A DNA stretch of 1,237 nucleotides, taken from NCBI RefSeq assembly GCF_003334315.1, contig NZ_QOWR01000119.1. The stretch is one strand, 5' to 3'. A program made the position numbers and the translations under genes. Below are positions 1-1,237 of the stretch, in pieces. This stretch comes from Escherichia coli. GTDB taxonomy: Bacteria; Pseudomonadota; Gammaproteobacteria; Enterobacterales; Enterobacteriaceae. The notes under the pieces were generated by a model. That model saw only the letters and a list, made by a program, of their open reading frames with translations. It did not search any database and had not been told where the DNA came from. Position 1 is the stretch's first letter; each line of letters starts with the position of its first letter.

Positions 1-614
1 GCCTGCCGGGGCAGCAGTATGATGAGGAGTCCGGCCTGTATTACAACCGCCACCGCTATTATGACCCGCTGCAGGGGCGATATATCACTCAGGATCCGAT
101 TGGACTGAAGGGGGGATGGAACCTGTATGGATATCAATTGAATCCGATATCAGACATCGACCCCCTGGGTTTATCTATGTGGGAGGATGCAAAATCGGGG
201 GCATGTACTAATGGTCTTTGCGGCACACTATCCGCTATGATAGGTCCAGATAAATTTGATTCTATAGATAGCACCGCATATGACGCCTTAAATAAAATAA
301 ATAGCCAATCTATTTGCGAAGATAAAGAGTTCGCTGGTTTAATATGTAAGGATAATAGTGGCAGATATTTCTCAACAGCACCTAACCGAGGAGAAAGAAA
401 AGGATCATATCCATTCAATAGCCCTTGCCCTAATGGTACTGAGAAAGTATCAGCTTATCATACTCATGGTGCAGATAGTCATGGAGAATATTGGGACGAA
501 ATATTTTCAGGTAAAGATGAGAAAATAGTTAAAAGTAAAGATAACAATATCAAGTCATTTTATTTAGGTACGCCCAGTGGTAATTTTAAAGCAATAGATA
601 ACCACGGGAAGTAA
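1..614 (+). CDS. Rhs-family polymorphic toxin, 3' portion (5'-partial): end of the RHS repeat-associated core plus a variable C-terminal toxin domain
   Basis: Frame 3 is open from position 3 to the TAA at 612..614 with no upstream stop, so the gene starts outside the window. The translation begins [57 protein letters not shown], which is the hallmark C-terminal end of the Rhs core (YD repeat followed by the PxxxxDPxGL boundary motif). The start at 138 in the ORF track is an in-frame TTG (Leu), not a real start. Which Rhs paralog this is cannot be determined from the window. Confidence 0.93.
159..173 (+). other. DPLGL core/toxin demarcation motif of Rhs (predicted autoproteolytic release site region)
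   Basis: Codons gac-ccc-ctg-ggt-tta encode DPLGL at 159..173. A first DPIGL lies at 93..107. In Rhs proteins the conserved PxxxxDPxGL motif marks the junction between the conserved core and the variable C-terminal toxin. Confidence 0.85.
174..611 (+). other. Variable C-terminal (Rhs-CT) toxin domain, 146 aa, family unassigned
   Basis: This is the segment after DPLGL: [18 protein letters not shown]…[33 protein letters not shown]…NHGK. It is AT-rich (about one-third GC by eye, versus about 60% GC in the first 60 nt of the window). It contains 5 Cys and a His cluster (HTHGADSH). No HExxH, HNH or obvious deaminase motif was seen. Confidence 0.75.
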
Positions 615-627
615 ATAACAAACAGAA

Positions 628-632
628 AAGGA
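628..632 (+). promoter_or_regulatory. Shine-Dalgarno-like sequence (AAGGA) for the downstream ORF
   Basis: AAGGA at 628..632 lies 7 nt upstream of the ATG at 640, which is the first start codon after the in-frame stop at 616..618. Confidence 0.5.
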
Positions 633-639
633 TTACCTA

Positions 640-1023
640 ATGTCTGCAGAGTTCATGGTAATATGTAAAAAAATATTGTTTAGGAACTGTGTCATTGTAT
701 CTTTGTTTGTTTTTACATACAACACATGGGCGCAGTGTAATAATAATATTAAAATAATGCGCAAGTATGAAAGTGAAGGTAAATATACCGTTAGAAATTT
801 GGTTAAAAATAAAGCTATAGCATTGGAATTAGCTGAGATATATGTTAAGAATCGTTATGGACAGGATGCCGCAGAAGAAGAAAAACCATACGAAATCACT
901 GAGTTAACAACAAGTTGGGTTGTTGAAGGTACCATTCACTCAGACCAAATTGCTGGTGGGGTTTTTATTATAGAAATAGGCAAAAATGATGGGAGAATTC
1001 TGAATTTTGGCCACGGAAAATAA
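640..1023 (+). CDS. Putative cognate Rhs immunity protein (127 aa) with a signal-peptide-like or membrane-anchor N-terminus
   Basis: Complete ORF from ATG 640 to TAA 1021..1023, same strand and 25 bp downstream of the rhs stop, with the same AT-rich composition as the toxin domain. This is the canonical position of an rhsI immunity gene. The N-terminus (MSAEFMVICKKILFRNCVIVSLFVFTYNTWAQC) has basic residues followed by a hydrophobic stretch of about 11 residues and a possible signal peptidase I site (TWA|Q). The C-terminal half (…AEEEKPYEITELTTSWVVEGT…AGGVFIIEIGKNDGRILNF…) looks to me like the small NTF2-like/YbbC-type immunity proteins found beside E. coli rhs genes, but that is an unverified recollection. 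Confidence 0.7.
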   Translation: MSAEFMVICKKILFRNCVIVSLFVFTYNTWAQCNNNIKIMRKYESEGKYTVRNLVKNKAIALELAEIYVKNRYGQDAAEEEKPYEITELTTSWVVEGTIHSDQIAGGVFIIEIGKNDGRILNFGHGK

Positions 1024-1033
1024 GTATGTAAGG

Positions 1034-1056
1034 GGTGATGATGCCAACTTACTGAT
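1034..1056 (+). repeat. IS1 left terminal inverted repeat (IRL)
   Basis: GGTGATGATGCCAACTTACTGAT differs at one position from the canonical IRL I recall (GGTGATGCTGCCAACTTACTGAT). The exact start is ambiguous by 1-2 nt because of the preceding G run (1032..1035). Confidence 0.85.
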
Positions 1057-1088
1057 TTAGTGTATGATGGTGTTTTTGAGGTGCTCCA

Positions 1089-1237
1089 GTGGCTTCTGTT
1101 TCTATCAGCTGTCCCTCCTGTTCAGCTACTGACGGGGTGGTGCGTAACGGCAAAAGCACCGCCGGACATCAGCGCTATCTCTGCTCTCACTGCCGTAAAA
1201 CATGGCAACTGCAGTTCACTTACACCGCTTCTCAACC
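1089..1237 (+). CDS. insA: IS1 InsA (transposition repressor / N-terminal part of the InsAB' transposase), 3'-partial
   Basis: GTG at 1089 followed by codons for [48 protein letters not shown], the InsA zinc-finger region (CxxC…CxxC). The frame runs off the window end. Confidence 0.93.

Follow-up and report, generated by a model that had tools for sequence, protein, structure and literature searches.

A predicted JAB-fold toxin domain at the tip of Escherichia coli RhsB: family membership, probable site of action and a premature stop in one allele

The stretch of Escherichia coli DNA analysed here (1,237 nucleotides (nt) of contig NZ_QOWR01000119.1, referred to as the window) contains the 3' end of rhsB, followed by yhhH and by one end of an IS1 element. 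From comparative sequence data and a structural model we consider it likely that the C-terminal tip of RhsB is a toxin domain of JAB fold, which would act as a zinc hydrolase of the periplasm or envelope rather than on cytoplasmic nucleic acids. A periplasmic site of action, in particular, appears well supported by sequence comparison, because the immunity proteins carry predicted export signals both in E. coli and across phyla. As judged from profile matches the domain belongs to the already named family DUF4329 (Tox-JAB-2), and the gene is E. coli rhsB. Since gene, domain family and toxin-immunity pairing were all previously known, there is no new toxin family in the window, and the claim of novelty made in an earlier sequence-only reading, to which the domain was of unassigned family and without a recognizable toxin signature, is refuted by a confident Pfam profile match to a named toxin family.

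Family membership, motif and predicted fold

The translation contains 146 codons after the sequence DPLGL (nt 174-611), followed by TAA at nt 612-614; residues of the toxin domain are numbered throughout from Ser58 of the translation. The DUF4329 model of Pfam (PF14220) matches the protein of the window with E=2.8e-38, and the full form of 164 amino acids (aa) with E=4.6e-40. The features that mark membership in this family can all be recognized: the Pfam match, the E/H[ST]H/S/D motif, the position after the Rhs core and the adjacent gene of the Imm-NTF2-2 family. Only the complete domain length is missing, as the copy in the window has 146 of the 164 residues. Over these 146 residues it is 100% identical to K-12 RhsB (AFDB50 match P16917); a second AFDB50 match, P16919 (RhsD), is at 51%. 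In a further AFDB50 match, the 1605-aa "Trichuris trichiura" protein A0A077ZH48, domains of RHS, DUF4329, Imm-NTF2-2 and a transposase are combined. Its identity to the E. coli toxin is 99%, and it almost certainly reflects contaminating E. coli sequence that became part of a whipworm gene model.

An exhaustive HMMER search yielded 757 cluster representatives (50% identity) at E<=1e-3. Of these, 110 were aligned with the query in MAFFT (n = 111); a further alignment, A2, consists of 61 sequences, and DUF4329 is matched in Pfam by 61/61 of them. Tblastn gave no match to the toxin in the phage collection, only one of six records in the plasmid collection was informative (Tenacibaculum), and the single match in PHROGs, to a family of unassigned function, was weak (E=0.005). 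The toxin domain and its motif are located in the window as follows.

174 to 611, plus strand: RhsB C-terminal toxin domain (DUF4329/Tox-JAB-2, predicted JAB/MPN+ fold), 146 aa here and 164 aa in the normal allele.
327 to 329, plus strand: codon of Glu52, the JAMM general-base position, in KEFAGLI; present in 111/111 homologs and invariant in A2.
459 to 467, plus strand: codons of His96-Thr97-His98, the predicted HxH zinc-ligand motif; H96 and H98 each in 110/111 and invariant in A2.
507 to 518, plus strand: codons of Ser112-Gly-Lys-Asp115, the SxxD half of JAMM; S112 and D115 each in 111/111.

Besides these five positions, S46 is found in 110/111 sequences, and G55, T133 and P134 are also nearly invariant; the same set of invariant residues is recovered from the 61 sequences of A2. 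The H-T-H makes up the first half of a JAMM motif, E...HxH...SxxD. In the AlphaFold2 model (predicted local distance difference test score (pLDDT) 95, predicted template modelling score (pTM) 0.88) E52 lies just before the strand 53-59, HxH at the end of the strand 90-97, and SxxD at the start of the helix 113-120; these are the canonical structural positions of the JAMM residues in JAB domains. The spacer between HxH and S, as read from the sequence, is 13 residues long versus the textbook 7-10. The domain is confidently predicted to have a JAB/MPN+ (deaminase-like) fold with a complete JAMM motif E...HxH...SxxD, and the histidine cluster is, on grounds of conservation, a probable metal and catalytic site, as the sequence-only reading had also suggested. 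Profile comparisons outside the family are faint: Prok-JAB gives sub-threshold Pfam matches in 8/61 members (at best 1.7e-3), and a search of PDB sequences by phmmer and with a profile hidden Markov model (HMM) gave no real match, only C2H2 zinc fingers at E>1. As JAB domains and deaminases share a fold, and deaminases are common on Rhs proteins, the domain might be taken for a nucleotide or nucleic-acid deaminase toxin; however, the signature [HC]xE...PCxxC of these enzymes is absent and the invariant residues are those of JAMM (HxH...SxxD), so that we regard this as very improbable.

The sequence-only reading had described the landmarks of the domain correctly: besides the 146 codons after DPLGL, the five cysteines (residues 11, 16, 48, 58 and 85, in ACTNGLC, SIC, LIC and PCP), HTHGADSH (residues 96-103) and EYWDE (residues 105-109) are all present in the translation. 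Its speculation that the domain is a papain-like or NlpC/P60 cell-wall amidase, with an N-proximal cysteine and a C-proximal histidine as catalytic residues, does draw on these cysteines and the histidine cluster, and a periplasmic context would suit a cell-wall hydrolase; the cysteine content of the domain (3.4%) is also about three times the usual level in E. coli proteins, which is roughly 1%. Nevertheless, no cysteine is invariant family-wide, either in the 111 sequences or in A2, there is no Pfam match to NlpC/P60, CHAP or any peptidase clan, and the predicted fold is JAB/MPN+, not papain-like. As a family assignment this alternative is refuted, and the probability that we assign to it is close to negligible.

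Of the features pointed out in that reading only H96 and H98 are conserved throughout the family; H103 is usually Pro in the relatives, and C11 and C16 (7 to 8/111) and C48 (8/111) are confined to an enterobacterial clade. C58 is found in 47/111 sequences, being otherwise mostly Tyr, and C85 in 61/111. These last two positions (codons at nt 345-347 and 426-428) covary: in the 111 sequences both are Cys in 46 cases and neither in 49, with 15 sequences having only C85 and one only C58, and Tyr/Val is the commonest alternative to the Cys pair. The pattern suggests, from alignment, a Cys58-Cys85 disulfide, as expected in an oxidising compartment.

Immunity proteins and site of action

The partner of the toxin is encoded immediately downstream.

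640 to 1023, plus strand: yhhH, the cognate immunity gene, 127 aa, Imm-NTF2-2 (Pfam PF15631; annotated yhhH in RefSeq).
640 to 732, plus strand: predicted Sec signal peptide of YhhH, residues 1-31 (by eye and hydropathy).

Residues 60-127 of YhhH match Imm-NTF2-2 with E=3.4e-26; no NCBIfam model matched the protein. The gene is intact in the window and is preceded by a Shine-Dalgarno-like AAAGGA at nt 627-632. Its N-terminus has a KK/R n-region, a hydrophobic segment CVIVSLFVFTY and a cleavage-type site between A and Q in T-W-A-Q; the Kyte-Doolittle maximum over 11 residues is 2.38, at residues 17-27. In homologs at 65-72% identity the hydrophobic core and the following W-A with Q or N after the cleavage site are kept, with divergence of the residues in between. 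YbbC, the partner of RhsD, begins with MKYSSIFSMLSFFILFAC, which is lipobox-like (ILFAC). Immunity proteins of this kind have precedents, as type VI effectors that act in the periplasm are neutralised by small Sec-exported or lipoprotein immunity proteins.

The same property can be recognized far from E. coli. A profile search for Imm-NTF2-2 recovered members in Acidobacteria (Terracidiphilus, Granulicella), Fimbriimonadales and metagenomes, and all of the full-length homologs (21/21) start with a classic signal peptide, for example MKKLLISFFIFTLLFTSFVFA before QQ or MRKTIILALFCIVAVSVIFA before SS at the cleavage site. Pairing of the toxin with Imm-NTF2-2 is also found in loci L003, L012, L013 and L053; examples of the immunity genes are L012 2580-2957, L013 2840-3184 and L053, and of the proteins P0282, P0291, P0297 and P0302-P0308. 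In the survey of Zhang et al. 2012 (PMC3482391) Imm-NTF2-2 is the immunity family of Tox-JAB-2 and is listed as "E. coli only"; in our data it accompanies DUF4329 toxins of Acidobacteria, Armatimonadota, Bdellovibrionales and metagenomes as well, in every case with a signal peptide at its N-terminus.

Nor is the trend limited to Imm-NTF2-2. For six diverse toxins (L004, L007, L010, L011, L012, L013) the adjacent downstream open reading frame (ORF) starts with a signal peptide or is lipoprotein-like. L004, an apparent exception to exported immunity, proved to be a mis-called start codon: the gene start in the database (7291) hides a lipoprotein-like signal peptide (MKTKLLIFVLLLASISC) that is revealed by the ATG at 7141 (ORF 7141-7614), which overlaps the toxin stop by 4 nt. 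A more systematic sample was obtained by searching GTDB species representatives with a degenerate DNA pattern for HTHG...YLGTP. There were 50 matches in 49 loci; 30/50 are true DUF4329 ORFs by HMM, and 28 of these have enough downstream DNA. In 19/28 the downstream ORF begins within the interval from -80 to +13 nt relative to the toxin stop and has a signal-peptide or lipobox-like N-terminus, and the candidate immunity proteins of these 19 loci fall, by eye, into about nine unrelated protein groups. In the other 9/28 the only neighbour looks like a housekeeping gene (seven times for a flavin adenine dinucleotide (FAD) oxidoreductase, twice for a MOSC protein), and a candidate immunity gene is missing. 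Taken with the signal peptides of YhhH and of distant Imm-NTF2-2 proteins, the 19 loci bear out, at the level of sequence prediction, the periplasmic target that the sequence-only reading had proposed. A simpler rule, by which Cys-containing toxins would go with exported and Cys-free toxins with cytoplasmic immunity, was dropped, as the partners of the Cys-free toxins L010, L011 and L012 bear signal peptides.

A separate group of DUF4329 proteins, in Acidiferrobacteraceae, Arenicellales and related Gammaproteobacteria (L014, L017, L020, L023-L026, L031, L038, L052, L055, L057, L060 and L062), is not associated with Rhs. These proteins, 430-490 aa in length, carry a Sec signal peptide of their own, which we count with the evidence for a site outside the cytoplasm; besides DUF4329 at the C-terminus they comprise an N-terminal domain of some 280 aa and a hydrophobic segment. 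As seven of them have only an FAD oxidoreductase beside them, and no candidate immunity gene, it may be that they are not toxins.

The data above can be compared with the prevailing description of the family. Zhang et al. 2012 (PMC3482391) equated Tox-JAB-2 with DUF4329 and noted that it has a deaminase-like fold, carries the motif E, H[ST]H, S, D and is associated with RHS. The family includes E. coli RhsB and RhsD. The domain in the window agrees with it in the motif, in its place behind an Rhs core and in having an Imm-NTF2-2 partner; compared with a typical Tox-JAB-2, the allele in the window is without the last 18 residues. The difference of substance is in the activity, because that description predicts a nuclease, whereas our comparative data point to the envelope. 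According to the nuclease hypothesis DUF4329 would be a metal-dependent nuclease or RNase acting on nucleic acids in the target cell's cytoplasm, by analogy with JAB domains of the RadC type. Its basis is the observation that the toxin JAB clades are divergent, do not conserve the residues that line the ubiquitin-tail tunnel of JAMM isopeptidases and could be nucleases in the manner of RadC (Zhang et al. 2012, PMC3482391), together with the contextual argument of Iyer et al. 2011 for RadC. Later papers name DUF4329 an RNase or place it among nuclease toxins, which also counts against an envelope hydrolase; in one of these in-silico papers, which uses the RNase label, the RhsB tip of enterohaemorrhagic E. 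coli (EHEC) had been modelled and found to resemble a subunit of the 26S proteasome lid. The assignment is by analogy only, however: a review notes that Ma et al. 2017, the usual "RNase" citation, tested only Rhs-CT1, CT3 and CT5, and lists CT5-CT8 as "putative RNase". In the literature searched no experiment on any DUF4329 domain was found, including for the nuclease/RNase label. Moreover, immunity proteins normally sit where their toxin acts, and for those of DUF4329 we predict export in E. coli, across Imm-NTF2-2 and at 19/28 loci; the Cys58/Cys85 covariation also fits disulfides in an oxidising compartment. On balance we regard a cytoplasmic nuclease as unlikely.

Several observations weigh against the envelope hydrolase that we prefer. 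A Salmonella study lists two Rhs-DUF4329 immunity partners, on the basis of SignalP, as "No/CdiI" and "No/No" for transmembrane segment/signal peptide, and in the Tenacibaculum locus the downstream protein, of 223 aa, is without a signal peptide; both cases are favourable to the nuclease hypothesis. Mis-called starts of the type seen in L004 could be behind the Salmonella calls. One pig-gut locus is ambiguous for export of the partner, and in four loci the signal-like segment begins at an internal Met of the longest ORF. Signal peptides were judged in this study by eye and hydropathy, not with SignalP, and hydropathy alone also flags a Rossmann motif. As regards the fold, the structure prediction that the sequence-only reading had recommended did give a confident JAB/MPN+ model, but the accompanying Foldseek comparison with PDB was only marginal (best E=0.014). 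Finally, the same absence of published experiments bears on our reading too, and zinc binding, hydrolysis and toxicity of DUF4329 are all properties that we infer.

The premature stop and the IS1 element

The sequence-only reading took nt 611 as the natural end of the domain and overlooked that this copy is truncated; the other E. coli copies read on for 18 residues.

612 to 614, plus strand: premature stop TAA, where the consensus is GAA (Glu147); the only change versus the reference locus over nt 1-1030.
615 to 668, plus strand: untranslated remnant with the last 17 toxin codons and the original stop (ITNRKGLPNVCRVHGNM*), recognized from full-length homologs and the RefSeq rhsB end.

T for G at nt 612 is the sole difference from the reference E. 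coli locus in this interval. Other E. coli copies have GAA at 612, then continue to a stop at nt 666-668, the 18 further residues being EITNRKGLPNVCRVHGNM; the full-length homologs P0002-P0005 end in ...NHGKEITNRKGLPNVCRVHGNM, and rhsB in RefSeq terminates at the position corresponding to nt 668. Among the 2513 E. coli complete genomes that carry the segment nt 585-640 there is no exact match to it (0/2513): 2512 match at 98.2%, that is with one mismatch, and one is more diverged. No exact match to the TAA allele was found among GTDB species representatives either.

The lost residues 147-164 include the predicted beta-strand 147-152 and a sixth cysteine, Cys158; this terminal Cys is kept in 6/8 members of the enterobacterial clade. 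In the model the pLDDT averages 91 for the block 151-160 and 63 for residues 161-164. The truncated copy is left with an odd number of cysteines and without an edge strand, with all five JAMM residues kept, and its Pfam match reaches only model position 108 of 116, versus 114 in the full-length protein. Because a predicted beta-strand and the sixth Cys are removed, this copy is probably, to judge from the model, weakened or inactive.

A stronger version of this interpretation is that rhsB is undergoing pseudogenisation, the copy in the window being a decaying, non-functional toxin gene next to which only the immunity gene is retained. The uniqueness of the TAA among the 2513 genomes and over 1030 otherwise unchanged nucleotides, the loss of a confidently predicted strand together with Cys158 and the shortened Pfam match are all in agreement with it, as is the presence of IS1 10 nt past yhhH, and inside rhsB itself in other genomes. 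Against decay it can be argued that 146 of the 164 residues remain, including the five JAMM residues, that some family members end close to residue 146, and that the window covers only the 3' end of rhsB, the upstream part being outside it. Furthermore, either a true pseudogenising mutation or an error in sequencing could account for the T at nt 612, and in the latter case the T would also be a point against our own reading. In our judgement the arguments for and against decay balance each other.

The truncation also changes the relation between the two genes. Where rhsB is intact, its end overlaps the start of yhhH by 29 nt (nt 640-668), which is compatible with translational coupling; in the window copy translation of rhsB ends 25 nt before the yhhH ATG. 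The remaining features of the window lie at its two ends.

3 to 173, plus strand: end of the conserved Rhs core of rhsB (NCBIfam matches, translation).
1034 to 1237, plus strand: left end of IS1, with insA from GTG 1089 (loss of similarity to the reference locus; translation; annotation of matches as IS1 transposase).

The reading frame of rhsB is open from nt 3. Residues 1-57 match RHS_core (NF041261) with E=1.7e-30, at profile positions 1205-1261 of 1261, and the same end of the core matches Rhs_assc_core (TIGR03696) with E=4e-21, both in NCBIfam; the core is closed by the autoproteolysis motif PxxxxDPxGL at nt 144-173. The G+C content drops at the junction, as is typical of Rhs tips, from 53% in the Rhs core to 30-39% across the toxin and immunity sequences. 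By megablast, E. coli matches to the window are at 99.7-99.9% identity and are annotated rhsB, yhhH or "DUF4329 domain-containing protein"; at least 80% of the window is held by 2607/5426 E. coli complete genomes.

Beyond nt 1033 the window is no longer similar to the reference locus, the remainder being equal to the IS1 copy in L001. The element, with the inverted repeat GGTGATGATGCC..., is inserted 10 nt after the yhhH stop, in place of the usual downstream HEAT-repeat/lyase remnant and yhhI; as one piece, the yhhH-IS1 junction is found in 0/5426 E. coli complete genomes. Taken with the private stop codon, this points to a lineage rich in IS elements that the collection does not cover, perhaps an IS1-rich one such as Shigella. 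Elsewhere, as in L002 (NZ_CM132249.1, 3173-4446) and in several E. coli, IS1 lies inside rhsB just upstream of the DUF4329 region, and rhsB split in this way leaves an orphan "DUF4329 domain-containing protein" fragment and an intact yhhH. Because several E. coli genomes carry IS1 inside rhsB, the locus is a recurrent IS1 target. Rfam, promoter and terminator scans of the window gave nothing relevant except a promoter-like site in the IS1 end: a sigma-70-like match, ATGCCA-16-TATGAT, at nt 1041-1068 (plus strand), inside the inverted repeat, the known location of the IS1 promoter. Promoter-like sites in the window are fewer than expected from shuffling.

Proposed activity and relation to known JAB systems

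These results suggest the following sequence of events for an intact RhsB. A PAAR/Rhs, type VI-type route would bring the tip to a neighbouring cell, and the tip would be freed from the Rhs shell; in the periplasm of the target Cys58-Cys85, and probably Cys11-Cys16, would form disulfides, and the domain, with Zn2+ bound through H96, H98 and D115, would hydrolyse a bond of amide or isopeptide type. JAB enzymes characteristically cleave isopeptide bonds at an extended C-terminal tail (Zhang et al. 2012, PMC3482391; Iyer et al. 2011). For this reason the peptide cross-links of peptidoglycan or the link between Lpp and peptidoglycan may be put forward, speculatively, as candidate substrates.

The envelope hydrolase so envisaged would differ in several respects from its relatives of known function. 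The JAB/MPN+ isopeptidases (AfJAMM, PfJAMM1, Rpn11, CSN5, AMSH/Sst2, BRCC36) are only 11-20% identical to the toxin, which has in addition an N-terminal helical region (residues 1-50) and C-terminal strands; they are cytoplasmic or nuclear and work on ubiquitin-like tails, whereas the toxin would be a secreted antibacterial used on bacteria without such conjugates. RadC is intracellular, is often fused to helix-hairpin-helix (HhH) or other DNA-related domains, and has neither an immunity partner nor an export context. Cap3 of the cyclic-oligonucleotide-based antiphage signalling system (CBASS) and BilC are also cytoplasmic, being JAB regulators in operons with E1/E2-like enzymes and not secreted toxins. 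A parallel is offered by Tox-JAB-1 of Bacteroidetes Rhs proteins, the other JAB toxin clade on Rhs, whose Imm65 immunity proteins bear a signal peptide together with a lipobox (Zhang et al. 2012, PMC3482391); nonetheless it is a separate clade, with the motif NxxxE and a different immunity family. The Tae/Tsi amidase pairs provide a working analogy only: they share delivery to neighbours, small Sec-exported or lipoprotein immunity and possibly periplasmic disulfides, but have folds (papain-like or NlpC/P60, other amidases) unrelated to the JAB fold predicted for DUF4329.

A more general proposal, which we advance tentatively and with less assurance than the envelope location itself, is that the Tox-JAB-2 toxins, including K-12 RhsB and RhsD, are not nucleases but the first periplasmic JAB/JAMM metallohydrolases, which would cut an isopeptide-like bond of the envelope and be blocked by exported NTF2-like and other immunity proteins. 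The family is widespread and is routinely labelled "RNase" or "nuclease", a label against which the comparative data argue. If it is indeed made of envelope metallopeptidases, annotations would have to be corrected in many catalogues of type VI effectors of E. coli, Salmonella and Xanthomonas, and the JAB/JAMM enzymes would gain a new compartment and a new class of substrates.

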